This document shows, piece after piece, positions 9,040 through 34,572 of a stretch of DNA of 64,000 nt. Origin of the DNA: an uncultured Alphaproteobacteria bacterium (GTDB lineage Bacteria > Pseudomonadota > Alphaproteobacteria > HIMB59 > GCA-002718135). Made by a program: the position numbers and the translations under genes. Below the pieces are notes generated by a model. That model made no database searches and was not told the origin of the DNA. It worked only from the letters and a program-made list of their open reading frames with translations. How positions within the stretch are numbered: the stretch's first letter is position 1; the number at the start of each line of letters is the position of its first letter. The stretch is from the NCBI GenBank assembly GCA_902570155.1, contig CACFXU010000001.1, positions 169,360 to 233,359 on the forward strand, given 5' to 3'.

Positions 9040-9888
9040 CTAAAGAATTTGAAAATAAACAACCGAAATACCACTCACTATTAAAATAGATGGTATTATT
9101 CGAGATTTTGCATTCTTCTCAAATAAGAAAAGCATTCCAATAATTGCAGCAAACACAATGCTTATTTCTCTAATACTAGAGACATAAGCTATTTCTATAA
9201 ATTGCATACTCCAAACAACAATTGCGTAACTACTTGTTGCAAACACACCAGCAGCAATCCCAGATCTAAAAGTGTATGTTTCTCTTTTTCGTAAACCATC
9301 TTTAGAGATCAAACCGATAATTAGTAAAGGTATTCCATTAAGTGTGAAGAGCCAGTAAATATAGGAAAAACCATTTTCAGAAAGTCTAACCCCGACCCCG
9401 TCAACTAAAGTGTAAGCAGTAATTAGAATAGCCGTTGATATTGCGAGAGCAAAACCTCTAAAGTTAAAAGATAAATTTTTAGAATAAGAAATTAAAAATA
9501 AACCAATACAAACAATTAATATTCCCACAAAACCAGCAACACTAATATCAGAACTTAAAAATAAAATACTAATGATCGCTACAAACAAACATGAACTTCC
9601 TCTAGAAATTGGATATATGTACGAGAGATCTCCGTACCTATATGAGTAGATAACATTTAGTCTGTAGAACACATGAATGATTACGGTTGCAATTAAAAAA
9701 TACCAAACCTCTAAAGTTGGAAATGGAACAGTAAATGTTAAAGGTAAAAAAATAGTAACTTCCAAGACAGACGTTATACCCATTAACGATAAAGGGTTCT
9801 TGCTTGATTTTATTATTGCACTCCAAACTGCATGACATAGAGCAGAAACAAGAATTAAGATAAAAATAAAATTTACTGACAATGTCAT
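9040..9888 (-). CDS. DMT/EamA-like integral membrane transporter
   Basis: 282 aa with about 10 TM segments and no soluble domain. Confidence 0.65.
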   Translation of the reverse strand: MTLSVNFIFILILVSALCHAVWSAIIKSSKNPLSLMGITSVLEVTIFLPLTFTVPFPTLEVWYFLIATVIIHVFYRLNVIYSYRYGDLSYIYPISRGSSCLFVAIISILFLSSDISVAGFVGILIVCIGLFLISYSKNLSFNFRGFALAISTAILITAYTLVDGVGVRLSENGFSYIYWLFTLNGIPLLIIGLISKDGLRKRETYTFRSGIAAGVFATSSYAIVVWSMQFIEIAYVSSIREISIVFAAIIGMLFLFEKNAKSRIIPSILIVSGISVVYFQIL

Positions 9889-9902: not shown

Positions 9903-10796
9903 TTACTTCATGCCTGTCAAAGTAATTCCTTCAATAAATCGTTTTTGTGCGATTATAAAAGCAACAATAAGAGGAACAGTTACAGTAACTATTGAAGCCA
10001 TCATAGGACCAAATTCGTCACTATCAATCCCACCTCTAAATTCTCTTATACCAAGTGGTGGAGTAAAGAGATCTCTATTTCCTGTTATTACCATACGAGG
10101 CCAGAAATAATCATTCCAGTGCGCAACAACTGAGAATATTGCAAAAGCAAGTAACGCTGGTATTGCAGTTGGAAGCATTACCTTCCATACGATTGCGTAC
10201 TCTCCCATGCCATCCATCCTGGCGGCATCAATTAATTCATCTGGAACAGTCATAAAGAATTGCCGCATTAAAAAAATTCCAAACACCGATATGGTCCAGG
10301 GGAGTATTAAGGCGGAATAAGTGTCAACTAATCCTGCCTGGGCCAACATAACATATAATGGAAGTGCAATTCCGTGAACAGGAATCAGTAAGCAAAATAA
10401 AACCATCGAGAAAACAAATTCTCGTCCGTAAAACCGTAACTTGGCGAGTGCATATGCGCACGGTAAGGCAACTAAAACCTGAATAATGAAAATTGATAAA
10501 GTAACAATGACACCATTCATTAAGTATCTAGGAATAGGGGCTTTTTCAAATGCAAACCAATAGTTGTATTGATATGGCTTCATTGTACATGTTTCTTCTG
10601 AATAACCAGTTTTAACACATACGGGAAACGTTTGAGTTTCTTGCGCACCAATAAGACCACCAGAAATTGATTGGATTTCTTGCTGAGATTTTAATGACAT
10701 AGAAACCATCATATAAAAAGGGAGCATTACTACGATAGCACCAATAATTAAGATTGCATGTTTCCAACCTTCTCCAATATATTGTTTAGCTTCCAT
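9903..10796 (-). CDS. CUT1-type ABC transporter permease (UgpE/MalG-like)
   Basis: 6 TM segments and an EAA loop (DELIDAARMDGMGEYAIVWKVMLP). Confidence 0.9.
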   Translation of the reverse strand: MEAKQYIGEGWKHAILIIGAIVVMLPFYMMVSMSLKSQQEIQSISGGLIGAQETQTFPVCVKTGYSEETCTMKPYQYNYWFAFEKAPIPRYLMNGVIVTLSIFIIQVLVALPCAYALAKLRFYGREFVFSMVLFCLLIPVHGIALPLYVMLAQAGLVDTYSALILPWTISVFGIFLMRQFFMTVPDELIDAARMDGMGEYAIVWKVMLPTAIPALLAFAIFSVVAHWNDYFWPRMVITGNRDLFTPPLGIREFRGGIDSDEFGPMMASIVTVTVPLIVAFIIAQKRFIEGITLTGMK

Positions 10797-11752
10797 TAAT
10801 AATGAACCCTCTTCTCAATGACATATCTTTGGAAAAACGTTAACACAAGAATAAATCCAATAAAGACAACAGTGATTGCTGCACCAATACTGGTTAAGTT
10901 TTGTTGAATAGCTTTTTCAAAGATTGCATACATCATGACATACGTTGTTTTTGATGGACCACCTTTAGTAAGTATCTCAATGGTATCAAATACTTGAAAT
11001 GTTCTAATGGTAGTAATAGTGACAACAAACAACGTTGTTGGACCAAGCATTGGCCATGTAACAAGTTTAAATTGCTCCCATGTAGATTTAGCCCCATCCA
11101 TTTCTGCAGCTTGGTATAACTCTCTTGGTATGCTTGTTAAGCCAGCTAAATATAAAACCATGTTAAAACCAAAAGCTTGCCAAATTCCTATGAAACATAC
11201 TGTCCAAATCGCAGTATTTTTTTGTTTTAACCAATATGGAAAATCCATGTTGTTTGCACATGCTACAGCGTACCAGCTTTCTTGTGAGTCTACCCACGGC
11301 AACCAATGAAAACCAAGAATGAATTCCCTAACTCCTCCACACCCATTTGCTAAAAAACTATTTACAATTCCTAATGTTGGATGAAGAGTAAATTCCCATG
11401 CAATTGCCATTGCAAGAAGAGTTGCCATAACTGGAAGAAAGAAAATTGTTTTATATATATCAGCGCCAAACCTTAGTGAATTTAAGAGCATAGCAGCACA
11501 TAATCCAAGTACAACAGAAATTGGAACGACAACAATAACATACGTCGCTGTGGCCCAAATCATTTTGACATAAGTTTTGCGATTGAACATCTTGTCATAA
11601 TTTTCTAGTCCAACCCACTCGAATGTTTTGTTTCCTAAATTATAGTCAGTAAAAGAAATTCCTCCTGCAAGAAAAAGAGGAAAAATTAAAATAATTATCA
11701 TCAGTATGATTGCTGGTGCAATAAACCATATGTGAGCTTTTGAATTATGCAT
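10796..11752 (-). CDS. CUT1-type ABC transporter permease (UgpA/MalF-like)
   Basis: EAA loop (ELYQAAEMDGAKSTWEQFKLVTWPML). Its stop overlaps the downstream permease start. Confidence 0.9.
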   Translation of the reverse strand: MHNSKAHIWFIAPAIILMIIILIFPLFLAGGISFTDYNLGNKTFEWVGLENYDKMFNRKTYVKMIWATATYVIVVVPISVVLGLCAAMLLNSLRFGADIYKTIFFLPVMATLLAMAIAWEFTLHPTLGIVNSFLANGCGGVREFILGFHWLPWVDSQESWYAVACANNMDFPYWLKQKNTAIWTVCFIGIWQAFGFNMVLYLAGLTSIPRELYQAAEMDGAKSTWEQFKLVTWPMLGPTTLFVVTITTIRTFQVFDTIEILTKGGPSKTTYVMMYAIFEKAIQQNLTSIGAAITVVFIGFILVLTFFQRYVIEKRVHY

Positions 11753-12878
11753 TAGTAAATTGAACTCTCATTCCTGCTTGATTAAATAGTAATGCTTTAT
11801 CTGAAACTCTTTTTATATTTACACTAGAACCGTTTGAAATTTGGTGTGTAAATTGTGGTAAGCCTCTTACAATTATTTTATTTGAACCGTCTTCAATATT
11901 TACATGAAAGAAAATATCTGAACCTAAATTTTCTCTATATGCAACGGTTCCACTAAATGTATTTTCATTACTTTCATTTGTAATTTCTAAATGTTCTGGT
12001 CGAATACCAATATGTAAATCTGTGTTACTTTCAGAACTTTTTCTTTTTAGATTAACGTTGAGAAAACTTATCATCCCACTAGAGTCCGCAGTTCCTTTAA
12101 ATATATTTATTTTTGGACTTCCAACAAATTGAGCCACACTTAATGAGGAAGGATTGTCATATACTTCTTGAGGCTTATCTAGTTGTAATAAATTTCCATC
12201 AATCATAACAGCCATTCTAGAGGACATAGTTAATGCTTCTGCTTGATCATGTGTTACGTAAACAAAAGTAGTTTTAAGTGAATTATGAAGCTCAGATAGT
12301 TCAGATCGCATGTGAACTCTCAGAGCCGCATCTAAATTTGAAAGAGGTTCATCCATTAAAAAGGCAACAGGCTCTCTAACCATAGCACGACCAAGAGCAA
12401 CTCTTTGTCTTTGACCACCTGACAATTGTCCTGGTTTTCTATCCAATAGTTCTGAAATTTTTAGAGTTTCAGAAGTTTTATTTACTAATTGATTTATAGA
12501 TTCTGTTTTCTCTTTTTTGCTTGGAGAAAAATTACCAATCAAGGGCAGTCTTTCAAATGCATTATAATCCCTTAGTCTTAATGGGGTTTCTAAATTTCTT
12601 CTTACTGTGAGATGAGGATAAAGAGCATATGACTGGAATACCATTGCCAAATCTCTTTCACTGGCTCTAACTCTATTTACATTTTTATTATCTATTAATA
12701 CATCACCTGAAGTCTGTTGTTCCAATCCTGCAATTATTCTAAGTAATGTAGATTTACCACAACCAGATGGACCAACTAATGTTAAGAATTCTCCATCGTT
12801 TATATCAACATTCAAATTATTAAGTACTTGTGTAGACCCAAATGACTTTGAAATATTTTTAAGTGATATTGTCCCCAC
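11745..12878 (-). CDS. CUT1-type ABC transporter ATPase (UgpC/MalK-like)
   Basis: Walker [10 protein letters not shown], signature LSGGQRQR, Walker B FLMDEPLSNLD, and a C-terminal MalK-like regulatory domain. GTG start is preceded by AGGGGGAA. Confidence 0.9.
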   Translation of the reverse strand: MGTISLKNISKSFGSTQVLNNLNVDINDGEFLTLVGPSGCGKSTLLRIIAGLEQQTSGDVLIDNKNVNRVRASERDLAMVFQSYALYPHLTVRRNLETPLRLRDYNAFERLPLIGNFSPSKKEKTESINQLVNKTSETLKISELLDRKPGQLSGGQRQRVALGRAMVREPVAFLMDEPLSNLDAALRVHMRSELSELHNSLKTTFVYVTHDQAEALTMSSRMAVMIDGNLLQLDKPQEVYDNPSSLSVAQFVGSPKINIFKGTADSSGMISFLNVNLKRKSSESNTDLHIGIRPEHLEITNESNENTFSGTVAYRENLGSDIFFHVNIEDGSNKIIVRGLPQFTHQISNGSSVNIKRVSDKALLFNQAGMRVQFTNA

Positions 12879-12887
12879 TCATTCCCC

Positions 12888-12905
12888 CTGTATCTTAACT
12901 TTAAT
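12888..12905 (+). promoter_or_regulatory. Pho-box-like direct repeat (CTGTATC-TTAA-CTTTAAT)
   Basis: 7+4+7 architecture resembling the enterobacterial Pho box CTGTCAT-N4-CTGTCAT, in the divergent ABC/phnA spacer. Chance occurrence is likely in AT-rich DNA. Confidence 0.15.
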
Positions 12906-12944
12906 CTACAAAATTTTATTAAATTTGAGAATATTTTAAATCTA

Positions 12945-12977
12945 TTTATTTCAGTTTTATTTCAATTTTATTAACAA
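12945..12977 (-). promoter_or_regulatory. three tandem 11-bp units, candidate PhoB site for the ABC operon
   Basis: Plus strand reads tttatttcagt/tttatttcaat/tttattaacaa. Minus strand reads TGTTAAT-AAAA-TTGAAAT-AAAA-CTGAAAT-AAAT, followed about 9 nt later by TAAAAT. It lies 67-99 nt upstream of the GTG at 12878. Confidence 0.3.
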
Positions 12978-13054
12978 ATATTCAAATTATGATTGAGTTT
13001 AACTAGCAGATAACTATAAATTCGTATTTTTAATAATATATATTAGTTGAATTC

Positions 13055-14296
13055 GTGTCCGATAATTTAGAAATTAATAAAAGAGAATATCCAAGCTCTT
13101 TCTCAAAAACTGCTATTGTTATATGCCTTGATGGTAGTCAAAAAGAGTATCTCGAAGAAGCATCAAAATCTAATCTTACACCAAATCTTGATAAATTAAT
13201 TGCAAGTGGTGAAAACCTACTTGTTCACAGCGCTATTCCAAGTTTTACAAATCCAAATAACATTTCGATTGTAACAGGCCAACCAAGTTCTGTTCACGGT
13301 ATATGCGGAAACTTCTTTTATACACCTGAGACGGGCGAAGAAGTAATGATGAATGATCCAAAATATATGCGAGCACCAACTATTTTTGAAAAATTTTACA
13401 ATTCTGGTTCTAAAATTGCTCTTGTTACTGCAAAAGACAAGTTGAGAACACTTTTAGGAAACGGATTAAGTTTTGATGATGAGAGAGCTATTTGTTTTTC
13501 TGCTGAAAAATCTGATCAAGCAACAAAAGATCTCAATGGTATAGATAATGTAAACGATTGGTTGGGGATGCCAGTGCCAGAAGTATATTCTGAAGGACTC
13601 TCTGAATTTGTAATGGCTGCAGGTGTAAAACTTCTTGAAGAGTTTAAACCAAATATTATGTATTTATCGACTACGGATTATATTCAACACAAATATGCAC
13701 CGGGAAATGAAACAGCAAATAAATTTTATGCAATGTTTGATAAATATATTGGTCTTTTAAATAAGGAGAATGTTTCTATAATCATCACAGCAGATCACGG
13801 AATGAAACCAAAATCAAAAGAAGATGGTTCACCTAATGCAATATTTTTACAAGATTATTTAGATAAAAAATTTGATCCAAACATGGCTAAAGTCATCCTA
13901 CCAATTACAGATCCATATGTTGTTCATCATGGTTCACTTGGTTCTTTTGCAACAATTTATTTAGAAGACAAGAGCAAGATAGATTCAGTTGTAAATGCTA
14001 TTAAAGAAATAAAAGATATAGAAGTTGTTTTAACAAAAGATGAAGGATGCTCTACTTACAATTTACCTCCTGATAGAATGGGAGATATTATATGTATGTC
14101 TTCAGAATTTATGACTATTGGTTCATCGGAAGATAAACACAATCTTTCTGGATTAAATGAACCTTTACGTTCTCATGGAGGACTCCATGAAAGAGAAGTG
14201 CCATTCATATCAAATTTAAAATTACAAAACTTAGATACTAGCAAACAATTATATAACTATGATGCATTTTATTATGCAATAAATGGAGCCCTATGA
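13055..14296 (+). CDS. phnA: phosphonoacetate hydrolase (alkaline-phosphatase superfamily)
   Basis: 413 aa. The nucleophile block [15 protein letters not shown] and metal-site TADHGM are typical of NPP/PhnA-type enzymes. It is translationally coupled (ATGA overlap) to the aldehyde dehydrogenase. GTG start. Confidence 0.75.
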
Positions 14297-15735
14297 TGCA
14301 CAAAAAAATGATTAATGAAGCAATGCGTATTGCTGGAGAAAAAGTTACTTCAGATAAAACAATAAATGTTGAGTACCCTTTTACAGGTGAAGTAATCGGA
14401 ACGGTTCCAGCCGGTACTGCAGAGCATGCAAGAAAGGCTTTAGATATTGCTGCAAATTATCAGCCTAAACTTACAAGATATGAGAGACAAAAAATTCTAC
14501 AAACTGCTGCAGAAGTACTTGTTAAAAGAAAAGAAGAAATTTCTGATATTATTACTTTAGAACTTGGTATCTCAAAACAAGATTCTTTATACGAAGTAGG
14601 AAGAGCTTTCGATGTATTTTCATTAACGGCTCAACTTTGTATTCATGATGATGGAGAAATATTTTCTTGTGATTTAACTCCGCATGGAAAAGCCAGAAAA
14701 ATATTTACCATAAGAGAACCTTTAACGGCAATCTCAGCAATCACCCCATTTAATCATCCTTTGAATATGGTAGCGCATAAAATTGCACCTTCAATTGCAA
14801 CTAATAATTGTACTGTATGTAAACAAACAGAATTAACACCTTTAACAGCAATGGTACTCGCCGATGTTTTATATGAAGCAGGTTTACCACCCGAAATGTT
14901 TTCAGTTGTAACTGGATGGCCTCAAGACATTGGATCAGAAATGATCAAAAATCCAAACATTGATCTAATTACTTTTACAGGCAGTGTGGGTGTAGGAAAA
15001 TTAATTGCTGAACAAGCTGGATACAAAAGAACAGTACTAGAGCTTGGCGGTAATGATCCATTAATTGTTTTAAATGACTTAGATGGTGATGATCTTAAAA
15101 AAGCTGTTGAACTAGCTGTTACTGGAGCAACGAAAAATTCTGGTCAACGTTGTACAGCTGTTAAAAGAATATTGGTTCAAGAATCCATTGCAGATCAATT
15201 TGTTGAAATGGCTCTTGAGCGTGCTAAGAAAATTAAATTTGGTGATCCTATGAATATGGAAACAGACTTAGGTACTGTTGTTAATGCTCAAGCTGCAGAA
15301 CTTTTTGATAAAAGAGTTTCTATGGCTGAAGAAGACGGTGCAAAAATTTTATATCACCCTGGAAGAAAGGGTGCTTTGTTACCTCCAATAGTTGTAGATC
15401 ATGTTGATCCTAAAAGTGAATTAGTTTTAGAAGAAACATTTGGTCCAGTTATACCAATCATTCGTGTGCCTAATGACGATGAAGCTGTAATGAAAATATC
15501 TAATTCAACCGCATTCGGATTATCATCTGGTGTATGCACAAATAACTTCATGAGAGCAAAAAAATATATTCAAGGCTTAAATGTTGGCACTGTAAATATT
15601 TGGGAAGTTCCAGGCTATAGAATTGAAATGTCTCCTTTTGGAGGAATTAAAGATTCAGGTCTTGGTTATAAAGAAGGTGTAATTGAAGCAATGAAAAGCT
15701 TTACTAATGTAAAAACCTTCTCACTACCCTGGTAA
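14293..15735 (+). CDS. phnY: aldehyde dehydrogenase, probable phosphonoacetaldehyde dehydrogenase
   Basis: ALDH catalytic blocks ELGGNDP and GQRCTAVKR. It overlaps the phnA stop, and phnW lies in the same locus. Confidence 0.7.
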
Positions 15736-15870
15736 AAATCATTTTTTCTCTAATTTTTCTTATTGCTGTGGAAAAATAAGCTTATTTTTTAGTAATATTT
15801 TCGTAATAAAATTGTAACCCTTTGGGGCTACATGTTAGATTAAATTATTATATTCAATCGGGAGGATTAA

Positions 15871-17124
15871 ATGAAAAAATTAATTACAGGATTGGCAGCC
15901 GTATTAGCTTTCGGTTTTTATGGTTCTGTTAATTCAGCTAAGTCTATTGAAATAGAAGTAGCTTATCCTTATTCAGGATTATTCGATGTTACGTTTCAAG
16001 CTATTATGCCAGAGTTTGAAAAAGCACATCCAGATATTCAAGTTAAATTTAGAGCAACTTATGAAAACTATGAGGATGCAACTGCAACAATCTTCAGAGA
16101 GTCTACTTCAGGTAATTTACCAGATGTAACAATGCAAGGTCTTAACAGACAGGCACCTCTAGTTGACAAAGGTATTGCTAAGTCTTTAGAGCCATTTATC
16201 GCAAAAGAAGCAGCTTTTGAAAAAGATGGTTACCATTCTGCTATGTTAAGTCTTTCAACATTCGGTGGTGAAGTTTATGGATTACCATTTTCTGTATCAA
16301 CACCAGTTGGATATTATAACATGGATTTATTAGCTGAAGCAGGTGTAGATAGTATTCCAACTAACTGGGACGAAGTTATTGCAGCATGTAATAAATTAGA
16401 AGCAGCAGGTAAAGGAACTCTATACTTTGGTTGGAACATTACAGGTAACTGGTTCCACCAAGCATTAATGCATACTCAGAATGTTCCAATGGTTAAAGAT
16501 GGAGCTGTAAATATGGGTGGAGATGCAGGACTTGCAACGTTAGAGCAAATGAAATCAATCATGAGCGGATGTAATATGCCAAACTATTCAATTGCTGATG
16601 GTCAAGCTGCGTTTAACGCAGGTACTATTGGTATGATGTTCTGGTCTACTTCAAGCTTGGGTTCAGTTAATGCTGCAAAGGCAGACTTTGTTTTAAAAAC
16701 TGCACCATTCCCTGGAATGGCTGGAGTAAACAATGGAACACCAGCAAGATTACCAGCAGGTGGAAACGCTGCAATGTTAGTGTCTACATCTGATGATCCA
16801 GCAAGAGTTGATGCTGCATGGACTTTCTTAAAGTTCATTACATCAGGTATCGGTGCTGCATTAGTTGCTGAAACAACTGGATATGTTCCACCAAACAAAG
16901 CAGCGAATGATTTATTAGGTGACTTCTATAGTCAAAACCCTAATAAACTTACTGCAGTTGAACAACTTCCACTTCTAGCTGATTGGTTTGCGTATCCTGG
17001 AGAAAATGGATTAGCTGTTACACAGGTAATCTATGATTTCACGGAAGAAATTGCTACAGGCGACGCTGATGATATGGCAGATCTTCAAGAAGAAATGATG
17101 GAAGAAATAAACGATCTTATGTAA
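15871..17124 (+). CDS. ABC transporter substrate-binding protein, family 1 (UgpB-like)
   Basis: Signal peptide, 417 aa, and strong SD (GGGAGGA). It has a CUT1-type SBP layout (GNLPDV, GLPFS.STPV.YYN). It is the only SBP available to the permease/ATPase operon at 9903-12878. Confidence 0.8.
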   Translation: MKKLITGLAAVLAFGFYGSVNSAKSIEIEVAYPYSGLFDVTFQAIMPEFEKAHPDIQVKFRATYENYEDATATIFRESTSGNLPDVTMQGLNRQAPLVDKGIAKSLEPFIAKEAAFEKDGYHSAMLSLSTFGGEVYGLPFSVSTPVGYYNMDLLAEAGVDSIPTNWDEVIAACNKLEAAGKGTLYFGWNITGNWFHQALMHTQNVPMVKDGAVNMGGDAGLATLEQMKSIMSGCNMPNYSIADGQAAFNAGTIGMMFWSTSSLGSVNAAKADFVLKTAPFPGMAGVNNGTPARLPAGGNAAMLVSTSDDPARVDAAWTFLKFITSGIGAALVAETTGYVPPNKAANDLLGDFYSQNPNKLTAVEQLPLLADWFAYPGENGLAVTQVIYDFTEEIATGDADDMADLQEEMMEEINDLM

Positions 17125-17154: not shown

Positions 17155-17187
17155 ACAGCGGCTTTATAAAAGCCGCTGTTTTATTTT
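17155..17187 (+). terminator. rho-independent terminator after the SBP gene
   Basis: acagcggcttt-ata-aaagccgctgt forms an 11-bp stem, followed by tttatttt. Confidence 0.75.
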
Positions 17188-17211: not shown

Positions 17212-18291
17212 ATGCCTCTTACAACAACTACAATAGGTGCTTATCCAAAACCTAAACAAACACCCATTCAAGATTGGTTTTTAGGGACAAAATCAGAAGA
17301 AGAGAAAAAAGCATCAAAAGGATTATTATCAAATTGGTCACCTGGCGCATATGAAAAAGCATTAGAGTCTGCAGGTGCGGATGCTGAAAAATTATTTTTA
17401 GCAGCAATTAAAGAAGTTATAACTGATCAAGTAAGTGCGGGTATTGATGTTCCAACAGATGGGGAAGTTAGGCGCGAGAGTTATGTATTATATCAATGTC
17501 GATTTTTAAATGGTGTAAGTTTTAAGGAAGTTACACATAAGTCAGTAAGACAGGGTGCGTTCGAAGCTGACCTTCCAACTATTGTTGCACCAATTTCAAG
17601 TAAAGAAATACGTATGCATTTAGACTGGAAGAGTGCACAACAATTTACAAAAAACCCAGTTAAAATTACGCTACCTGGACCAATGACAATTACAGATTCA
17701 ATTGCCAACAATTACTATGATGACATGAAAAAACTTGGTTTTGATTTAGCATTAGCCCTCAATAAAGAAGTTAAAGCACTTGTAGATGCAGGTTGTCAGT
17801 ATATTCAAATTGATGAACCAGTATTTGCTAGAAAGCCCGATGAAGCTCATTCTTACGGTATGGAAAATTTAGAAAGAATGATGCATGGTATTCCTAAAGA
17901 AGTGCAACGCGTTTGCCATATTTGTTGTGGTTATCCTAACTCATTAGATTCAGAAGGGTATAAAAAGGCTGATCTAGATGCTTATGATAGAATTGCATCA
18001 CTTGTAGATGATTCAACTATTGATGAAGTATCTTTAGAAGATTCACATAGGCATAATGATTTAAATCTTTTAGAAAAATTTACTAAAACAAAAGTAATTT
18101 TTGGATTTATTGATATTGCAAAAAGCAGAATGGAATCTGTTGAAGAAGTAAGAGTTCGTATCAAAGATTCACTTGAACATATTGATGAACACCGTTTAAT
18201 AGCTGCACCAGATTGTGGTTTAGGTTTCTTTACACGAGAACAAGCAATTGAGAAAATGACAATTTTAACTAAAGCGGCAAAATCAATTTAA
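17212..18291 (+). CDS. single-domain MetE-like (cobalamin-independent methionine synthase C-terminal domain family) Zn-dependent alkyltransferase
   Basis: 359 aa, starting TTTIGAYPKP. The IDEP block is present, and the Zn ligand pattern is preserved: H-x-C in CHICCGY, E in SLEDS, C in APDCGLG. Confidence 0.7.
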   Translation: MPLTTTTIGAYPKPKQTPIQDWFLGTKSEEEKKASKGLLSNWSPGAYEKALESAGADAEKLFLAAIKEVITDQVSAGIDVPTDGEVRRESYVLYQCRFLNGVSFKEVTHKSVRQGAFEADLPTIVAPISSKEIRMHLDWKSAQQFTKNPVKITLPGPMTITDSIANNYYDDMKKLGFDLALALNKEVKALVDAGCQYIQIDEPVFARKPDEAHSYGMENLERMMHGIPKEVQRVCHICCGYPNSLDSEGYKKADLDAYDRIASLVDDSTIDEVSLEDSHRHNDLNLLEKFTKTKVIFGFIDIAKSRMESVEEVRVRIKDSLEHIDEHRLIAAPDCGLGFFTREQAIEKMTILTKAAKSI

Positions 18292-18295
18292 GGTA

Positions 18296-19408
18296 ATGTG
18301 GAATTATTTTAACCCTGTTGAAATTATCTTTGGAAAAAATAGATTTACAGAAGTACATGATGCTCTTAAAAATAAGAACTACATCATAATCACTCATCCA
18401 GAAGAAATTTTTAAAAAATATAGCGATGAATTAAAATCTTCTTCAAATCCACCTTTATCCATTATGACGGATGTTCAGCCTAATCCAGATTATAAGGATA
18501 TTTTAGAGCTACAAAATAAATTTTCTTCAATCAATGAATCGGTAGATTATATTTTAGCTATAGGTGGTGGCTCTGTTACAGACACAGCTAAAGCAATTGC
18601 TGCATTTAAAGATAAACAAGAATATCTAACAGATTTCGTTCGTAATAAGCAAAATCCAAGAGTCGAAAATCCAATCAAGATTATTGCAATACCTACAACT
18701 TCAGGAACATCAAGTGAGCTTACGTGTTGGGCCACAATATGGGATAAAGAAAAAAATAATAAATTATCTTTGGCGCATAAATCACTTTATGCAGAAAAAG
18801 CAATTATCGATCCATCTATTATGGTTGATAAGCCTTTAGGTTTGACCATTTCAACTGGTTTAGATGCTCTCTCCCATTCAATGGAAAGTATTTGGAATAT
18901 TAATGCGAACCCAATTTCTGCTTCACATGCAATACAAGCATCAAAATTAGTATTAGAAAATTTACCACTTCTCACTAAAGATTTAAGAAATGTTGAATTA
19001 CGCTCAAACATTGCACTGGCATGCGTTCATGCTGGCTTAGCGTTTTCCAATACAAAAACTGCTATTGCGCACAATCTATCATACCCTGTGACGCTCAATT
19101 ACGGCATTCAACATGGTATTGCTTGCTCATTTACATTACCCATGATTACTAAAAGTATGGTTGGAATTGATAGTGTAGCTGAAGAAAGACTAAAACTAAT
19201 TTTTAACGATAACCTAGAGAATGCTGCAAATCATCTGAGTGAATTTATGCGTTCTTTAGAGGTTCCTCTTAACTTAAATGAAATAAAAGTTCCTGTTCAA
19301 GAATGGAATAATATAGTAGATGATGCGTTTTTAGGGGAACGAGGTAAAAACTTTATTGGCAATAAAGAAGCCTTCATCTCTTCTGCTAAATCAATGGGAC
19401 TTTATTAG
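18296..19408 (+). CDS. group III iron-containing alcohol dehydrogenase (phosphonoacetaldehyde-reductase-like)
   Basis: AIGGGSVTDTAK, IPTTSGTSSE, and His-rich metal motifs (DALSHSMES, AHNLSYP, QHGIA). The N-terminus MWNYFNPVEIIFG resembles PhpC/FomC-type enzymes. The family call is solid; the substrate is inferred. Confidence 0.75.
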   Translation: MWNYFNPVEIIFGKNRFTEVHDALKNKNYIIITHPEEIFKKYSDELKSSSNPPLSIMTDVQPNPDYKDILELQNKFSSINESVDYILAIGGGSVTDTAKAIAAFKDKQEYLTDFVRNKQNPRVENPIKIIAIPTTSGTSSELTCWATIWDKEKNNKLSLAHKSLYAEKAIIDPSIMVDKPLGLTISTGLDALSHSMESIWNINANPISASHAIQASKLVLENLPLLTKDLRNVELRSNIALACVHAGLAFSNTKTAIAHNLSYPVTLNYGIQHGIACSFTLPMITKSMVGIDSVAEERLKLIFNDNLENAANHLSEFMRSLEVPLNLNEIKVPVQEWNNIVDDAFLGERGKNFIGNKEAFISSAKSMGLY

Positions 19409-19410: not shown

Positions 19411-20517
19411 ATGAAAAAAAATTTCAGGTTTTATGATAACAGACAAAAATACTTATTATTTGTCACAACAACAAATGAAAAAAATCAAATTGCTGATGCG
19501 ATACGCCCTCACGTAAATAAAATTAAACCTCAAAAACCTGGTATAAAAATATTTGATGCTGGTATGGGTGATGGTTCCTTACTTATGAATGTTATGCGTC
19601 AGTGCCACGAGGCTAAGCCTAACGTACCTTTATTAGTTTGCACAAAAGAAATAAGCATAGAAGATGTAAGATTAGGTTTAGAAAAATTACCCGACAGGTT
19701 TGTTGAACATAAGAATACGGTTTTTGTCATTTCAAATCTACACTACGCTGAAGCTGCAAACCTAAAATCAAAAAATGAAGTTAAACAGAAAAAAATTAAT
19801 TGGAATATTATTAAATTAAAAGGAGATACCTCTCTTGAATTTGCCCAACAATTAAGAAAACAAAATGAATTTTTAGAAAAAAAATGGAATATAGAAATTA
19901 ATAAAAAGTCAGGTAACCATACTTATAAAGAGCCTTCAGTCATGGTTATCTACCGCGAAGATCAAGAATTTAATGTAAATGAATTAATACCTACCAAAAA
20001 AAAATCAGATAATAAATTTGATCTTATAATTGCTTCACAGCCTTATCGTTCAAGAATCACAGCAGAAAAGAAATCAAAATATGTCATCGAACCAATGATT
20101 AGAGCGTTAAAATCAAAAGGGAAATTATTAACTATTCATGCTTCAGGAAAAGATCCTGCTAATGAAATAATTCGTAAAATTTGGCCAAAAGAGGACCCAT
20201 TTCCTTCTCTTGGAAATAGTATCATTTCTTATCTTAAGAAAAATTTAGATAAAGATTTATTAAGAAGATTATCTTTTGGAGAAAAAAGAATTATTAAATG
20301 TAAATTGAGAGCTCTACCAACAGAAATCAGCGGAGGTATAGCGACATCATTAGTTTTTTCTGCTTGGAATGCCTCCATATATGTCAATCAAATGGATGAC
20401 GACAAAGTAATGAAAGTAGAAAAAACTAAAAACTATGAAAAAATTGTTCAAAACATTGTTGCTAAAAATAAAGGTCTTTATTTTAACAATGAAATATTTG
20501 TAATCGAAAAAAAATAA
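19411..20517 (+). CDS. hypothetical protein with class-I methyltransferase-like Rossmann motifs
   Basis: IKIFDAGMGDGSLL looks like SAM motif I, followed by an acidic residue after strand 2 and a DLIIASQPY block. I cannot recognise a family. It starts 2 nt after the ADH stop. Confidence 0.35.
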   Translation: MKKNFRFYDNRQKYLLFVTTTNEKNQIADAIRPHVNKIKPQKPGIKIFDAGMGDGSLLMNVMRQCHEAKPNVPLLVCTKEISIEDVRLGLEKLPDRFVEHKNTVFVISNLHYAEAANLKSKNEVKQKKINWNIIKLKGDTSLEFAQQLRKQNEFLEKKWNIEINKKSGNHTYKEPSVMVIYREDQEFNVNELIPTKKKSDNKFDLIIASQPYRSRITAEKKSKYVIEPMIRALKSKGKLLTIHASGKDPANEIIRKIWPKEDPFPSLGNSIISYLKKNLDKDLLRRLSFGEKRIIKCKLRALPTEISGGIATSLVFSAWNASIYVNQMDDDKVMKVEKTKNYEKIVQNIVAKNKGLYFNNEIFVIEKK

Positions 20518-20521: not shown

Positions 20522-21310
20522 TTATTTAAACCAATTAACTTCTGTTTTTAAAAAATCCTCTGTATGAATAATTAAGGCGTCAGATCGAATTATTGCAACA
20601 TTATAATTTGTATCTGTATTAGCCGTTCCTAAACGATATTCATTTGAAAAGTTAGGTATTAGAGGAGACCAAGTACTTCTTGGGGAAGAAAAAGTAATAC
20701 CACAATAAGAGCCAGAACTTGTAATATGTTGATGACCAAAAAAAATATGTTTTATTATCTTATTATTTTTCGTTAAAATTTTTTGAAACTCTTTTTTTTG
20801 TTGTAATCCTATTCCATCACTTTCCTCTTTTACTAATGCCAGTGGATTATGATGCATAAAGATATACGTATCTGTATTAGTCTTACTTAAAATATTATTT
20901 AACCATTCTTGCCTCTCTTCACAGTAATGTCCTTGGTGAGTATTAATTAGATTAGTATCTATAAAAATTAAACGTTTATTATCTATATCCTTAAAGTATT
21001 GAATAAATCCATTTGGATCGGTTTCAATATTAGGAAAGTTTATTTTAAACTCATCTCTGTTATCATGATTACCTATAATTAACTGAGGACTCAAATTCTT
21101 TGGCAGGTCTGCTTCATCAATTATTTTTAAAAATAACTGATAAGAATCTTTATCACCTAAGTCTGTAATATCACCAGTGATGGCAAATAAATCTGCATCA
21201 CCATGATTATTTTTTATATGAGTTAATGCTTTTTTAAATTTACTGACAGGATCTATGCCATGAATCTTATCTATATAAATATGAGGGTCTGAAAGGTGAA
21301 TAATTTTCAT
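20522..21310 (-). CDS. calcineurin-like metallophosphoesterase, CpdA/GpdQ-type phosphodiesterase
   Basis: The full motif set is present: HLSDPH, TGDITDLGD, IGNHDNR, FMHHNP, FGHQHI. Confidence 0.8.
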   Translation of the reverse strand: MKIIHLSDPHIYIDKIHGIDPVSKFKKALTHIKNNHGDADLFAITGDITDLGDKDSYQLFLKIIDEADLPKNLSPQLIIGNHDNRDEFKINFPNIETDPNGFIQYFKDIDNKRLIFIDTNLINTHQGHYCEERQEWLNNILSKTNTDTYIFMHHNPLALVKEESDGIGLQQKKEFQKILTKNNKIIKHIFFGHQHITSSGSYCGITFSSPRSTWSPLIPNFSNEYRLGTANTDTNYNVAIIRSDALIIHTEDFLKTEVNWFK

Positions 21311-21970: not shown

Positions 21971-23068
21971 TTAGTTTAATGTTAATCCCAATTCAGTAAC
22001 AACTTCTTTTACTGCCTCTATAGTATCTATCATGTCTTGTTCATCTAAATTACCAATACACCCAATTCTAAAAGTTTCTGCCACTGTTAGTTTTCCAGGA
22101 TAAATTAAAAAATCTTTTTCACTAAGAGCATTATAAAATTTCTCAAAATTAAATTTAGGATCATTAGGTTGTTTAAACGTAATAATAATTGGTGCCTGCA
22201 AATTATCAGGAAGTAATTGCTCAAATCCTAACTCTTTCATTCCATTACAAATAATTTCACAATTTTTTTTATATCTTTTGCCCCGTCCCTCTACACCGCC
22301 TTGTTCTTTATGTTCTTCAATAGCTTGGTTGAATGCAGCCAATACGTGTGTTGGAGGTGTAAATCGCCATTGTTTATTTTTTTCCATTGCTTGCCATTGA
22401 TCATATAAGTCTAGACTTAGTGAGTGACTATTGCCTTTTGCATTTTGAATAACTTCATTTTTAACAAGAATGAAACCAACACCTGGCACACCTTCTAAGC
22501 ATTTGTTTGATGAAGCGGCTACAGCATCAAAAGTAATTGTTTTAGAACTTAAGGGTAATGCACCAAAGGCACTCATTGCATCGATGAATAACGATAAATT
22601 TTTCCCTTCAACCAATTTTGCAATGTCTTCAATAGGATTTAAAATACCCGATGTTGTTTCACAATATACAGCAAAGACGTGTGTTAAGTTGTTGCTATCA
22701 ATTAACTCTTCAATTTTATTGATGTCATGTACTTCATGTTCAGCAACTTCATATTCAATAAAATCTCTCCCTAAATATGTGCACATTTTTTTCATTCTTT
22801 GTCCGTAAGCACCATTGATCAGAATCAGAATTTTAGAATCTTTTTGAGTAAGAGAGCTCACCATCGACTCTACAGCAAAAGTCCCACTTCCCTGCATTGG
22901 AACACATTGATATTTATCTTCACCATCTATTAATTTAACAAGGGAATCTCTAATTGATGCATTGAGATCAATAAATTTTGTATCTCTCGAACCCCAATCA
23001 TGAAGCATTGCCTCTTTTGTTGACATCGATGTCGTGAGAGGCCCAGGGGTTAATAATTTTTTATCCAT
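21971..23068 (-). CDS. phnW: 2-aminoethylphosphonate--pyruvate transaminase
   Basis: 365 aa class-V aminotransferase with N-terminal LLTPGPLTTS and PLP-lysine block SSNKCLEGVPGVGF. Confidence 0.8.
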   Translation of the reverse strand: MDKKLLTPGPLTTSMSTKEAMLHDWGSRDTKFIDLNASIRDSLVKLIDGEDKYQCVPMQGSGTFAVESMVSSLTQKDSKILILINGAYGQRMKKMCTYLGRDFIEYEVAEHEVHDINKIEELIDSNNLTHVFAVYCETTSGILNPIEDIAKLVEGKNLSLFIDAMSAFGALPLSSKTITFDAVAASSNKCLEGVPGVGFILVKNEVIQNAKGNSHSLSLDLYDQWQAMEKNKQWRFTPPTHVLAAFNQAIEEHKEQGGVEGRGKRYKKNCEIICNGMKELGFEQLLPDNLQAPIIITFKQPNDPKFNFEKFYNALSEKDFLIYPGKLTVAETFRIGCIGNLDEQDMIDTIEAVKEVVTELGLTLN

Positions 23069-23156: not shown

Positions 23157-23732
23157 ATGAGAATGGAAGAAAATATCGTAGATTATCTCTTAGATCTTTT
23201 GAAAACAAAAGGTGCTGATATTCAATATGGTAATGAGGATGTCACACAGCTTGAGCACGCACTCCAATGCGCTGAACTTGCTGAAAAAAATAAATTACCA
23301 GGACCAACAATTGCTGCAGCATTACTGCATGATGTTGGTCACCTTATCTATGAGGACGGCGATCCCATTCATGAAGGCAAAGATGGTCATCATGAAAATT
23401 TAGGTGCTGATTTTTTAAAAAAATATTTTGGTGAGGATGTTATTTTACCAATTAGAGCACATGTTGACTCAAAAAGATATTTATCAAGTGTTGAAGAGGG
23501 TTATTATGATAGCCTATCAGAAGCATCGAAACTTTCATTAAAAGTTCAAGGCGGTCCTTTCACAAAAGAAGAAGCAGATGCATTTATAAGTAAACCTTTT
23601 ATGGATGAAGCAATAGAGCTTAGGAGATTTGATGATTTAGCAAAAGTTCTAGATAAAAAAACTCCCGATGTTGAACATTTCCGTCCCTATTTAGAAGAAG
23701 CAAGAGAGTCTTTTTTAGCTAAACAAGCGTAA
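23157..23732 (+). CDS. HD-domain protein of the PhnZ/TmpB type (mixed-valent di-iron C-P cleaving oxygenase family)
   Basis: 191 aa. The pattern QLEHALQCAELA...AALLHDVGH...HHENLGADFL...RAHVDSKRYL...LSEASKLSLKVQGGP follows the PhnZ layout as I recall it. Confidence 0.65.
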   Translation: MRMEENIVDYLLDLLKTKGADIQYGNEDVTQLEHALQCAELAEKNKLPGPTIAAALLHDVGHLIYEDGDPIHEGKDGHHENLGADFLKKYFGEDVILPIRAHVDSKRYLSSVEEGYYDSLSEASKLSLKVQGGPFTKEEADAFISKPFMDEAIELRRFDDLAKVLDKKTPDVEHFRPYLEEARESFLAKQA

Positions 23733-24257
23733 ATGCAATTTAGCAATTATGATTTTATTGACTCTAAGTCATTTGCAGGAAAAATTATATTAACTTCTTT
23801 CCCAGGTCTTAACTCTAATGGTTTATTTGAAGAAACAATTTTAGCAAACGAATTAGAAATATTTAAAAATAATAATTGTAGTTCTATTACTTCTTTTGTT
23901 GAAGATAGCGAATTTGAAAAATTGTGTGATAAAACTTTGTTTGTCAAAAATATTTATGAACATAAATTACATTGGTACCATTTACCCATTTATGACATGG
24001 GAGCACCAGATAAAGATTTTAAATATAAATGGGAAACAACAAAAGTTTTATTAAAGAACGAATTGATAGATGGTAAAAATATAGTCTTACATTGTCGTGG
24101 AGGAAAAGGAAGAGCTGGCACTATAGCTGCTATTTTACTTGTTGAATTTAATTATGAAAAACAAGAAGCTATTAATCTTGTACGATCAAGAAGAAAAGGA
24201 GCTATTGAGTCAAAAATCCAAGAAGATTTTATTTTTTCTTATCGAGCAGTTAATTAA
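23733..24257 (+). CDS. Cys-based (dual-specificity/PTP-fold) phosphatase
   Basis: HCX5R(S/T) P-loop (LHCRGGKGRAGT) with an upstream Asp loop (IYDMGAPD). Its ATG directly abuts the stop of the HD gene (TAAATG). Confidence 0.75.
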   Translation: MQFSNYDFIDSKSFAGKIILTSFPGLNSNGLFEETILANELEIFKNNNCSSITSFVEDSEFEKLCDKTLFVKNIYEHKLHWYHLPIYDMGAPDKDFKYKWETTKVLLKNELIDGKNIVLHCRGGKGRAGTIAAILLVEFNYEKQEAINLVRSRRKGAIESKIQEDFIFSYRAVN

Positions 24258-25306
24258 AAAGAGACCGTTAAATTAAAAATATTTTCTAGAATAAATAAAA
24301 CAATTAAAGAAATTAAAGCTGCAATTATAGGTAGCGTCATCCAACCCAAAGAAATTCTACCCGCAATTGACCATTGAACCTCTTTTCCTCCTTTTAAAAG
24401 ACCAATTCCAATTACGCCGCCAACAACAGCTTGGGAACTTGATACTGGTACCAAAGGTATAGAGGGAAGATTTATAGATTGTAAAAAAGCACTTATACCC
24501 TGAGATGCAAATAAAAATAAAACAATAGAATGCGATATAACAACAATAAATGCTGCCACTGGTGTCATTTTTAAAAGATCATTACCCACGGTAAACATAA
24601 CTCTTTTCGAATAAGTAAAAACACCAACAGCTATTGCTAAACCACCCAGCAGAAATAATTGTTCTTTTGAGGAAAAGACAAATAAATTTCCAATAGTAAC
24701 ATCAGTAAACGGTGATATAGGTACGAAGACACCCATTACGTTAGCAATATTGTTTGCGCCTAAACTATAAGCACCAAAAGCACCCGCTAAAAGTAAAGCT
24801 GTTCTTGTATAGGCATCAAGTCTGAGAATATGTAACTTTCTATTGAGTATAACTCTTTTTGTAAAAGTAAATAAACCCATTGCAATAACTCCTGCAATGA
24901 TAGGACAGAGTATCCATGTTCCTAAAATAGTAATTAAAACTTGAAGGTTAGTTGAAGATCCCGTGTATAAATTCCAACCAACAATTGCTCCAACGATCGC
25001 TTGCGTTGTTGAAACAGGCAAGCCAACTTTGGTCATTAAATAAACGGATATGCCTGCAGCCACACATGCTGCAAAGGCACCAGGTAATGCATTAATAGCA
25101 CCTAACTTACCTAAAGTTTCTGTTGTACCTGCTCCGCTAATTATTGCACCTAGAATAACAAAGAGACTACAGATTATTGCTGCACTTGTGAAACTAACCA
25201 TTCGTGTTCCAACTGCAGTTCCAAAAACATTTGCTGCATCATTGGCGCCAAGTGACCAACCTAAAAAAAGACCACCAAATAAAAAAATTAGAATTGTAAT
25301 TTCCAT
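24254..25306 (-). CDS. inorganic phosphate transporter, PiT family
   Basis: 350 aa polytopic protein with the duplicated PiT signature GANDAANVFGTAVG / GANNIANVMG. Confidence 0.9.
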   Translation of the reverse strand: MEITILIFLFGGLFLGWSLGANDAANVFGTAVGTRMVSFTSAAIICSLFVILGAIISGAGTTETLGKLGAINALPGAFAACVAAGISVYLMTKVGLPVSTTQAIVGAIVGWNLYTGSSTNLQVLITILGTWILCPIIAGVIAMGLFTFTKRVILNRKLHILRLDAYTRTALLLAGAFGAYSLGANNIANVMGVFVPISPFTDVTIGNLFVFSSKEQLFLLGGLAIAVGVFTYSKRVMFTVGNDLLKMTPVAAFIVVISHSIVLFLFASQGISAFLQSINLPSIPLVPVSSSQAVVGGVIGIGLLKGGKEVQWSIAGRISLGWMTLPIIAALISLIVLFILENIFNLTVSF

Positions 25307-25312: not shown

Positions 25313-25975
25313 TTAAACGGAGCGTTTAATAGCGTAAATTTGAACCTCGTCAGCTATGTCTTCTGCTTGATCACAAATACGATCAATCTTCTCTACAAAA
25401 TATCGAAGATGCATTTTTTGATCTAGAGGTAATTCAGAATCAAAAATTCTTCTTGCAAGTGCACTAAATTTTATATCAGATTCTTTTTCGTAAAATGTAA
25501 CTTTATGTGCATTATCTCTAACAGATTTAATATCTCTAAAAAATGATCTTACAGTTAAACATAATGATTCAACACAATTTACAACAGTCTCTGTTAACTC
25601 AATTAAATCTTGGTGAAACTCTTTTGGAAAATTAGGTTTTTGAATAGAGAAGTGATAACAATTCCCTTGGTACATTCCAATTAATTCGTCGATGTGTTCT
25701 AGAAGTCGTAACACATCACTTCTTGCATCTGGGATTAGTGTTTCTTCATAAAGAGTATGCTCAACATCTTTCGTAATTTTGTCGGCCTTACTTTCCATTT
25801 CTTTTACTTTTTCAACCATTTCCTCAAATTTACCATTGGCGGAATGATTGAGATAAGTTGGAACTATCGATTTAAATACTAAGCCCACTTCAGAGACAAT
25901 ATCAACAAACTCATCAATTTCTCTTTCAAGCTTTTTGGTATCACCAAATAATGATGCACTTTTTAATCCAAACAT
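25313..25975 (-). CDS. DUF47 / PhoU-like Pit accessory protein
   Basis: 220 aa helical protein sitting directly upstream of the PiT gene, which is the classic DUF47-PiT pair. Confidence 0.8.
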   Translation of the reverse strand: MFGLKSASLFGDTKKLEREIDEFVDIVSEVGLVFKSIVPTYLNHSANGKFEEMVEKVKEMESKADKITKDVEHTLYEETLIPDARSDVLRLLEHIDELIGMYQGNCYHFSIQKPNFPKEFHQDLIELTETVVNCVESLCLTVRSFFRDIKSVRDNAHKVTFYEKESDIKFSALARRIFDSELPLDQKMHLRYFVEKIDRICDQAEDIADEVQIYAIKRSV

Positions 25976-31098: not shown

Positions 31099-31118
31099 TA
31101 TAAAATTACCTTAAATAA

Positions 31119-34530: not shown

Positions 34531-34531
34531 T
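34514..34531 (+). promoter_or_regulatory. Pho-box-like repeat upstream of pstS (CTGTAAT-AAAT-CCTTAAT)
   Basis: The first half-site matches CTGTCAT at 6/7. It lies within the last codons of phoR, 40-60 nt upstream of the pstS start. Confidence 0.25.
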
Positions 34532-34572
34532 ATATATTCTGTAGGACAACCTTATTTTAAATGAGGCTTAAT

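Follow-up and report, generated by a model that had tools for sequence, protein, structure and literature searches.

A Ugp-type ABC importer split around phnA-phnY in SAR11, with a putative phosphonate-associated specificity

Introduction

The Ugp systems, in which the importer UgpBAEC takes up glycerol-3-phosphate (G3P) and glycerophosphodiesters and is partnered by the diesterase UgpQ, are the closest described relatives of the ATP-binding cassette (ABC) importer examined here, whose genes lie on both sides of phnA-phnY in a phosphonate gene island of a SAR11 bacterium. The island is part of a stretch of 64,000 nucleotides (the window; contig CACFXU010000001.1 of GenBank assembly GCA_902570155.1, positions 169,360 to 233,359) from a SAR11/Pelagibacterales genome of 1.5 Mb with 31% G+C and 89% completeness. 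A first-pass annotation, made from the letters of the window alone, had proposed that this importer supplies the phosphonate pathway with phosphonate esters or similar compounds rather than with G3P. Ugp is known from E. coli, and structures of its solute-binding protein (SBP), UgpB, include those from Phaeobacter sp. MED193 (PDB 9LFF and 9LFJ) and from Mycobacterium tuberculosis with bound glycerophosphocholine (GPC; PDB 6R1B). Our importer shares with these systems the CUT1 architecture and the SBP fold (template modelling (TM) score of about 0.8). In UgpB, phosphate is held by Tyr64, Ser143, Ser266 and Tyr342, four residues that are strictly conserved in relatives binding G3P, GPC or dinucleotides and not in sugar binders (Wang et al. 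2025, PMC12718374). The glycerol hydroxyls are bound by Glu88, Gly303 and Arg393, and the glycerol is clamped by Trp188 and Trp191; the acidic residue and the Arg are present even in the GPC-binding UgpB of M. tuberculosis (PMC12718374).

The second group of relevant systems comprises the described phosphonate importers AepXVW, AepSTU, PhnSTUV (PF13343), PhnCDE (PF12974) and AepP (major facilitator superfamily, MFS). These are placed, as is our importer, near phnW, phnA and phnY or near carbon-phosphorus (C-P) lyase genes. Unlike those of AepXVW, AepSTU, PhnSTUV and PhnCDE, the SBP of our importer belongs to the unrelated family PF01547/PF13416 of CUT1 systems. The transporters of 2-aminoethylphosphonate (AEP) listed by Murphy et al. 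(2021) are of the PF13343 and MFS types only. A published type of cluster for the degradation of 2-hydroxyethylphosphonate (HEP) combines a PhpC-type alcohol dehydrogenase (ADH) with PhnY-PhnA, and the transporters of these clusters are left unassigned in that work (Piazza et al. 2026, PMC13576164). A literature search that included SAR11, phnA and ugpB revealed no paper describing or assigning the Ugp-like importer.

Two enzymes are also relevant. MesD (PDB 3RPD; Price et al. 2021) is a core methionine synthase whose family is defined by matches of at least 390 bits to ACIAD3523 (PMC7857596). GpdQ from Enterobacter aerogenes (PDB 2DXL and 3D03) is the solved structure nearest to a metallophosphoesterase (MPE) encoded in the window, with an E-value of only 4e-13. 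GpdQ itself lies in an ugp-like operon and also hydrolyses phosphonate monoesters. No useful account of GpdQ together with ABC transporters was found in the literature.

Results and Discussion

One importer is encoded on both sides of phnA-phnY

Three genes are transcribed on the minus strand, divergently from phnA-phnY. They encode permease 2 (UgpE/MalG-like, 9903-10796) and permease 1 (UgpA/MalF-like, 10796-11752), both CUT1-type with a BPD_transp_1 domain (PF00528), and an ATPase with a GTG start and a TOBE/MalK-type C-terminal domain (11745-12878; PF00005 and TOBE_2/OB_MalK). The best NCBIfam models for the permeases are UgpE (128 bits) and UgpA (103 bits), both below cut-off, and the ATPase scores 386 bits with UgpC (cut-off 432). 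Beyond a divergent intergenic region (12879-13054), the plus strand carries phnA, for phosphonoacetate hydrolase (13055-14296; TIGR02335, 469.5 bits, above the cut-off of 407.6), and phnY, for phosphonoacetaldehyde dehydrogenase (14293-15735; TIGR03250, 798.7 bits, above the cut-off of 635.7). These are followed on the same strand by the gene of a predicted periplasmic SBP with a signal peptide (15871-17124; SBP_bac_1, PF01547, and SBP_bac_8, PF13416). The open reading frames confirm the divergent layout described at the first pass. A family-1 SBP, two MalF/MalG-type permeases and a MalK-type ATPase are the components that define a CUT1 (TC 3.A.1.1) ABC importer.

The arrangement permease 2-permease 1-ATPase, divergent from phnA-phnY-SBP and a MetE-like gene, in part also an iron ADH (Fe-ADH) gene, was found in 80 of the 80 SAR11 loci with enough flanking sequence, which argues that the split around phnA-phnY is not due to chance. 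The SBPs of these loci are 76-100% identical, and subclades in which phnA is only 70-76% identical are included; in the loci examined, the SAR11 SBP gene was never found outside the phnA-phnY context. Outside SAR11, the four transporter orthologues are contiguous, in the order ATPase-permease 1-permease 2-SBP, in all loci with enough flank (SBPs 57-68% identical to that of the window, permease 2 orthologues 57-73%). The SAR11 SBP thus belongs with the divergent ABC genes. The ATPase, the two permeases and the SBP constitute one CUT1 ABC importer, the genes of which are split around phnA-phnY in SAR11, unlike those of Ugp, and are coupled to a MesD-like enzyme.

A profile search of the window revealed no second CUT1 SBP, and the other three weak UgpB-model matches of the genome are all on other contigs, so that the protein encoded at 15871-17124 is indeed, as first noted, the only matching family-1 SBP. 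The SBP has no PF13343 (SBP_bac_6) match of the kind that characterizes AepX, AepS and PhnS, and PhnD (PF12974) has no match in the whole genome (89% complete). Three PF13343 proteins of the genome, one of them encoded 3 kb upstream of the window, were considered as AepX or PhnS and rejected, as they correspond to FbpA, a PotF-like protein and ThiB. The described phosphonate importers PhnCDE, PhnSTUV, AepXVW, AepSTU and AepP are absent from this 89% complete genome, which extends to the genome the earlier remark that the window has no PhnSTUV- or PhnCDE-type transporter.

The catabolic genes of the island are predicted to form a hydrolytic AEP/HEP route. PhnA, PhnY and PhnW, the 2-AEP:pyruvate transaminase (21971-23068, minus strand; NF010006, 511 bits, and TIGR02326, 459 bits), all score above curated cut-offs, and the AEP route can be considered complete, as had been stated. 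The adjacent gene for a PhpC-type Fe-ADH (18296-19408, plus strand), likely a HEP dehydrogenase, is a near miss (TIGR03405, 365 bits, cut-off 424). As in the published HEP clusters, the PhpC-type Fe-ADH gene thus lies by phnY-phnA, and in one SAR11 subclade there is no phnW nearby; unlike in those clusters (PMC13576164), the ADH is here separable from the importer cassette.

The solute-binding protein is a UgpB paralogue that keeps the phosphoryl site

The solved structures closest to the SBP by sequence are a dinucleotide binder from Thermus thermophilus, the Phaeobacter UgpB (9LFF) and the UgpB proteins of M. tuberculosis and E. coli, with E-values of 1e-12 to 1e-18. An AlphaFold model of the SBP (pLDDT 81) was compared with known folds, and its top matches are M. 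tuberculosis UgpB with GPC, E. coli UgpB and 9LFF (TM scores 0.78-0.85). Sequence identity to UgpB is only about 20-26%, and the SBP scores 66 bits with the UgpB equivalog model NF008211, for which the cut-off is 411. Canonical UgpB (345-367 bits) and a member of the SBP family coexist in Phaeobacter and Roseibium genomes, and the two are separated by a very long branch in a tree from a quick IQ-TREE run. Judged by its sequence, the SBP is a UgpB paralogue and not an orthologue, and it belongs to a distinct, highly conserved family.

We examined the pocket columns using MAFFT and an independent profile-profile alignment (hhalign), with the numbering of Phaeobacter UgpB. The phosphate ligands Tyr64, Ser143, Ser266 and Tyr342 correspond to Y64 or Y67, S143, S259 and Y338 of the SBP family, respectively. 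Among the residues that bind the glycerol hydroxyls, Gly303 is matched by G297/G298, whereas Arg393 is replaced by T384 and Glu88 by M88 (MAFFT) or L91 (hhalign), never by an acidic residue. The clamp formed by Trp188 and Trp191 is altered: one Trp aligns securely (W188) and the second is deleted or shifted, the alignment being ambiguous at this point. The retained phosphate-site residues, the Gly-Gly pair and T384 do not vary in any of the 58 members, irrespective of genomic context, and position 88 is M, F or L in all 58. The two Tyr and two Ser place the SBP in the UgpB-type phosphate-binding branch, whereas the acidic residue and the Arg expected of a glycerophosphodiester binder are not present. 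This comparison with the UgpB structures, which the first-pass annotation had recommended, indicates that the site for the phosphoryl group has been retained and that for glycerol has been lost. Together with the NF008211 score and the coexistence with canonical UgpB, the replaced Glu and Arg argue for the earlier view that the importer is not a Ugp of the G3P type. Since the pocket residues do not vary with context, all members of the SBP family probably share one specificity.

Residues 88 to 94 of the SBP read M-Q-G-L-N-R-Q, of which Q89 to Q94 are invariant in 11 aligned members (position 88 being M, F or L). This motif is located at the end of the strand that bears the sugar- or glycerol-binding acid in MalE and UgpB, and its invariant Arg93 may contact the tail of the ligand. 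The pocket region also contains four invariant aromatic residues, W188, W194, F195 and W258.

The importer and a MesD-like enzyme form an optional cassette in SAR11

The gene that follows the SBP gene encodes a MetE-fold 'core' zinc methyltransferase related to MesD (17212-18291, plus strand; PF01717; closest PDB entry 3RPD, E-value 5e-44). It had no place in the first-pass annotation and proved to be the partner that truly co-varies with the importer. We performed a co-occurrence search in 115 species-representative genomes of the family to which the window belongs, in which the island MetE-like copy was defined by at least 81% identity. The SBP was found in 69 genomes, phnA in 100 and the island MetE-like copy in 68. 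SBP and MetE-like copy occur together in 67 genomes, that is, in 67 of the 69 with the SBP, and the exceptions are at contig ends. About 30 genomes, some of them 92-96% complete, have phnA and no SBP. Five cassette-less islands were examined, in which MFS-h117-EamA genes are divergent from phnA-phnY and accompanied by cupin-phnW; the ABC, SBP and MetE-like genes are absent from all five, and each of the genes for the Fe-ADH, a 368-residue protein, the MPE and PhnZ is limited to some of the islands. The EamA/DMT membrane transporter (PF00892; phn_DUF6-like, TIGR03340, 143 bits, cut-off 288), encoded in the window at 9040-9888 on the minus strand, 14 nt downstream of permease 2, is the constant transporter neighbour in SAR11 islands without the ABC cassette. 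The importer and the MesD-like zinc methyltransferase thus form an optional cassette within an EamA/PhnA-PhnY/PhnW island that often also encodes a PhpC-type Fe-ADH. The Fe-ADH is separable from the cassette, being present in one cassette-less island (our locus L189).

The MesD-like protein shares the fold of MesD and retains its HxC...C zinc motif and the homocysteine/methionine-binding residues Glu73, Asp188 and Tyr226 (3RPD numbering); for the zinc-ligand Glu and for Ser22 of 3RPD, no aligned counterpart was obtained. It differs from MesD in scoring only 154 bits to 3RPD, in having no MesX (DUF1852) partner adjacent to its gene, and in its linkage to an organophosphorus importer.

A second MetE-like paralogue (about 350 residues, about 50% identical; for example G000:C23:1497-2540) is near-universal in the same SAR11 family. 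In one genome (G082, contig C2; L191:4100-6692), the gene of this paralogue lies immediately 3' of that of a PehA-like 'phosphoric/sulfuric ester hydrolase' (NF045661, 411 bits, below cut-off), with a family-5 SBP gene alongside. Both SAR11 MetE-like paralogues may thus be paired with ester-handling genes.

Orthologous loci outside SAR11 link the importer to diesterases

We examined 55-56 loci outside SAR11, from Roseobacteraceae, Stappiaceae, Kiloniellaceae, SAR116, Hyphomicrobiales, Nisaea, Fodinicurvata, Veronia and several gammaproteobacteria. The contexts of the Roseobacter sinensis and Roseibium SBPs were read directly from the loci, as exact-sequence look-ups gave no record. One or two GpdQ-like MPE genes directly follow the SBP gene in 36 of 55 loci, and a divergent LysR regulator is present in 41 of 56. 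A MetE-like or URO-D-fold protein is encoded in 13 loci, including four to five gammaproteobacterial ones in which a MetE-like gene (54-59% identical) lies right after the SBP gene. Linkage to a diesterase is widespread and basal on the quick SBP tree, and linkage to a MetE-like gene arises in at least three places.

The window encodes a related enzyme, a GpdQ/SpdA-like MPE (20522-21310, minus strand) predicted to be a cytoplasmic diesterase. It has all metallophosphoesterase motifs, no signal peptide and 35% identity to the MPEs that follow the SBP elsewhere; its nearest solved structure is GpdQ and its best NCBIfam model is the 2',3'-cyclic nucleotide monophosphate (cNMP) phosphodiesterase SpdA. 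Unlike the SBP-following genes elsewhere, it sits at the end of a phnW-cupin-MPE array, in which an AllA-like cupin (PF04115; 21331-21963, minus strand) always adjoins phnW. The importer thus resembles Ugp in its Tyr/Ser phosphoryl site and in having, elsewhere, a cytoplasmic diesterase as partner, as Ugp has UgpQ; it departs from Ugp-UgpQ in that this partner is a metallophosphoesterase and not a GDPD-type enzyme.

Phosphonate genes (C-P lyase, PhnCDE or PhnS2) occur within 10 kb in nine of the 55 loci, in several independent lineages. A Roseovarius locus (L115:5852-21173) consists of a LysR gene divergent from one same-strand array, ATPase-permease-permease-SBP-MPE-MPE-PhnF-PhnGHIJKLM-PhnC-PhnD, so that the importer and two tandem diesterases are an add-on to a complete C-P lyase cluster with its own PhnCDE. 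In Nisaea, SBP-MPE-PhyH is followed by PhnZ-PhnMLKJI. A gammaproteobacterial metagenome-assembled genome has SBP-MetE-like genes beside a PhnS2-type AEP transporter (516 bits, above cut-off) and PhnCDE. In loci that also encode classical phosphonate importers, the Ugp-like importer presumably brings in something else, which suggests that its substrate differs from that of the coexisting PhnCDE or PhnS2.

The first-pass proposal that the transporter is tied to the phosphonate pathway holds within SAR11, where the importer always lies inside the phn island, and holds in part elsewhere, where nine of 55 loci have phn genes. A predominance of unlinked orthologues had been named as evidence against such a tie; 46 of the 55 loci are unlinked, while the linked ones come from several independent lineages.

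A distinct roseobacter variant (L086, L089, L090, L095-L103, L157) has a LysR gene divergent from the ABC and SBP genes, followed by genes for a GABA-aminotransferase-like protein, a class-III-like Zn-ADH and a hydroxypyruvate-isomerase-like protein. These clusters also encode a URO-D-fold protein of about 440 residues and often Pit and DUF47. The window MetE-like protein and the 368-residue protein were each considered as homologues of the 439-residue roseobacter protein and rejected, as BLASTP showed no similarity and Pfam places the 439-residue protein in URO-D.

Proposed function and alternatives

The importer appears to be a Ugp-type system with a new, phosphonate-associated specificity. 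Since the residues that grip phosphate are kept and those that grip glycerol are lost, it probably binds a modified phosph(on)ate and not G3P. We propose, with about even confidence, that it takes in a non-glycerol phosph(on)ate ester or derivative, which is trimmed in the cytoplasm and fed to Fe-ADH/PhnW-PhnY-PhnA. The ligand would be an organophosph(on)ate with a non-glycerol remainder, most likely an ester or other derivative of a C1/C2 phosphonate (HEP, AEP or methylphosphonate, MPn) or of phosphate. It would enter intact and be trimmed by the GpdQ-like diesterase, by the MesD-like enzyme, or by both. In SAR11, phosphonoacetaldehyde would then be formed from released HEP by the Fe-ADH, or from AEP by PhnW as in the published AEP route (PMC8316502), and PhnY followed by PhnA would yield acetate and phosphate. 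HEP and MPn occur as esters on marine dissolved polysaccharides, according to work cited in PMC9381506, and such polysaccharide esters are a plausible source pool. The suggestion of an ester, made at the first pass, agrees with the usual partner of the importer elsewhere, a cytoplasmic GpdQ-like diesterase. Of the individual candidates put forward there, phosphonoacetate would give the partner enzymes no role, and glycero-AEP, the deacylated head group of phosphonolipids, is made less likely by the absence of the residues that bind glycerol.

Several observations weigh against this proposal. The pocket alignments were made at 22-26% identity, and the Trp clamp, Tyr64 and Glu88 columns differ between MAFFT and hhalign. 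The GpdQ-like diesterase is not tied to the SAR11 cassette: it occurs in two cassette-less islands (L185 and L189) and was not detected within 10 kb in one cassette-bearing SAR11 subclade (L060-L078). The MesD-like enzyme may simply be a methionine synthase. As 46 of 55 loci outside SAR11 have no phosphonate gene within 10 kb, the ligand of the family could be an ordinary phosphodiester, and the clustering with phn genes could reflect general phosphorus-scavenging islands. Finally, the proposal does not account for the aminotransferase/Zn-ADH variant of roseobacters.

A narrower form of the proposal, rather unlikely in our view, is that the substrates of the family are methyl or other small alkyl esters, of phosphonates or of phosphate, such as O-methyl HEP or O-methyl MPn, the ester being removed by two alternative enzymes. 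The GpdQ-like diesterase would hydrolyse the ester, and the MesD-like zinc enzyme of SAR11 and some gammaproteobacteria would instead move the ester methyl to homocysteine, so that one molecule would give methionine plus phosphate after PhnY-PhnA or C-P lyase. This idea is consistent with the hydrophobic Met, Phe or Leu in place of the glycerol-binding acid, with the alternation of diesterase and MetE/URO-D-fold partners on the SBP tree, with the class-III/NDMA-type (methanol/formaldehyde-like) Zn-ADH of the roseobacter variant, and with the adjacency of the second SAR11 MetE-like paralogue to a homologue of the phosphonate-monoester hydrolase PehA. Phosphonate methyl esters occur in nature, and DhpI is a phosphonate O-methyltransferase.

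Import of free HEP for the Fe-ADH/PhnY/PhnA route is unlikely. The SAR11 core ABC-phnA-phnY-SBP-MetE-like-Fe-ADH is maintained even in a subclade without nearby phnW and matches the published HEP-cluster type, and a small hydroxy-phosphonate might suit a trimmed UgpB pocket. However, the Fe-ADH is found without the cassette in L189, the strict partner of the cassette is the MesD-like enzyme and not the ADH, and, with pocket residues that do not differ between contexts, free HEP would leave no role for the diesterase encoded after the SBP in 36 of 55 loci.

It is quite unlikely that the importer is an ordinary Ugp-type G3P/glycerophosphodiester system, present in the island only through the clustering of phosphorus-scavenging genes. 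The best family and fold matches are indeed UgpB, UgpA, UgpE and UgpC, canonical UgpB is absent from SAR11, the pairing with a GpdQ-like enzyme elsewhere recalls that of Ugp with UgpQ, and the window also contains, at a distance of 17 kb, the pst-phoU-phoB-phoR genes. Yet all Ugp models score below cut-off, and for the SBP far below it (66 against 411 bits); the glycerol-hydroxyl Glu and Arg that M. tuberculosis UgpB keeps (PMC12718374) are replaced in 58 of 58 members; canonical UgpB coexists with the family in the same genomes; and the SAR11 gene was never found outside the phnA-phnY context.

The strict co-occurrence of the SBP with a MesD-like enzyme that keeps the homocysteine/methionine-binding residues, and the aromatic-rich pocket region (W188, W194, F195 and W258), would fit the import of an N-methylated aminoethyl phosph(on)ate such as trimethyl-AEP or phosphocholine, the methyl group of which would be passed to homocysteine. 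We consider this very unlikely, as the invariant Arg93 and the lack of an acidic residue near the tail site speak against a cationic tail, trimethyl-AEP would leave the diesterase without a role, and the island encodes no further demethylases.

AEP itself, one of the substrates first suggested, is a highly improbable ligand. The source genome has phnW-phnY-phnA and phnZ and lacks AepX, AepS, PhnS and PhnD, a gap that this importer might fill; but some 30 related genomes have phnA without the SBP, and the five islands examined have phnW-phnY-phnA and a constant EamA with no such importer. In addition, a genuine PhnS2-type AEP transporter adjoins the importer in a gammaproteobacterial relative, and the acidic pocket residue that could pair with the amine is replaced by Met or Leu. 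Least probable of all is the import of nucleotide-derived phosphodiesters (dinucleotides, 2',3'-cNMPs) for their phosphorus, since the top PDB match of the SBP, a T. thermophilus uridylyl-3'-5'-phosphoguanosine binder, and the SpdA match of the diesterase are both weak (E-value 1e-17, and 174 bits against a cut-off of 400), and neither the MesD-like partner nor the repeated placement in phosphonate operons would be accounted for.

SAR11 outnumbers all other bacterial groups in surface seawater, and phnA is one of the most frequent phosphonate genes in the sea. A family of Ugp-derived importers linked to the breakdown of phosphonates in SAR11, roseobacters, Nisaea and gammaproteobacteria would suggest that esterified or otherwise derivatised phosph(on)ates are a genuine class of substrates in marine phosphorus cycling. 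It may also place a MesD-like core methionine synthase, from a family the methyl donor of which is not known, in a physiological context for the first time. Orthologues with the same pocket residues are present in culturable strains of Roseibium, Phaeobacter, Roseovarius, Tritonibacter and Salipiger, which offer a tractable entry point.

Promoter, translation and expression signals

The strong Shine-Dalgarno sequence noticed earlier is GGGAGGA at 15860-15866, five bases upstream of the SBP start codon (ATG at 15871). A palindromic hairpin is located in the phnY-SBP spacer (15813-15832), and an intrinsic-terminator-like hairpin with an 11-bp stem and a T tail (17155-17179, plus strand) lies directly 3' of the SBP gene. 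The SBP would thus be made from its own strongly translated, terminator-bounded unit.

The divergent ABC/phnA promoter region contains three 7-bp direct repeats in 11-bp phase (12945-12977; on the minus strand TGTTAAT AAAA TTGAAAT AAAA CTGAAAT), which may form a site for an OmpR/PhoB-type response regulator. The strict 11-bp phased motif was found nowhere else in the genome, pst and other genes included, and looser three-unit patterns occur in two unrelated places. In divergent SAR11 loci the phased pattern, including CTGTAAC, is partly kept.

The locus is fully covered in ocean metatranscriptome assemblies from four studies, and RNA contigs bridge both phnY-SBP and SBP-MetE-like. Word depth over the SBP gene reaches 153-1216x in three runs, against about 1-140x for its neighbours, and drops past about 17280; these depths come from assembled contigs and give a weak hint, not a rigorous ranking of genes or transcript ends. 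The data are suggestive of abundant SBP production with read-through into downstream genes.

Other genes of the island and its surroundings

Between the Fe-ADH gene and the MPE gene lies the gene of the 368-residue protein (19411-20517, plus strand), which has no assigned family and a weak methyltransferase-like match. Beyond phnW, a PhnZ-type HD oxygenase is encoded on the plus strand (23157-23732; TIGR03276, 202 bits, cut-off 215). One base past the phnZ stop begins a gene for a 174-residue phosphatase of the dual-specificity/protein tyrosine phosphatase type (23733-24257; PF22784). The next genes are Pit (24254-25306) and DUF47 (25313-25975), both on the minus strand; genes for Pit and DUF47 are neighbours of the roseobacter variant clusters as well.

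An aquaporin-like MIP gene, a glycosyltransferase gene and an LpxH-like metallophosphoesterase gene (30442-32922) are situated between the phosphonate island and the pst genes, and may be involved in lipid remodelling under phosphorus stress. The phoR-pstSCAB-phoU-phoB genes extend from 33478 to 40478, 17 kb downstream of the island, and a SET-domain-like open reading frame (about 33010-33509) lies immediately upstream of phoR.

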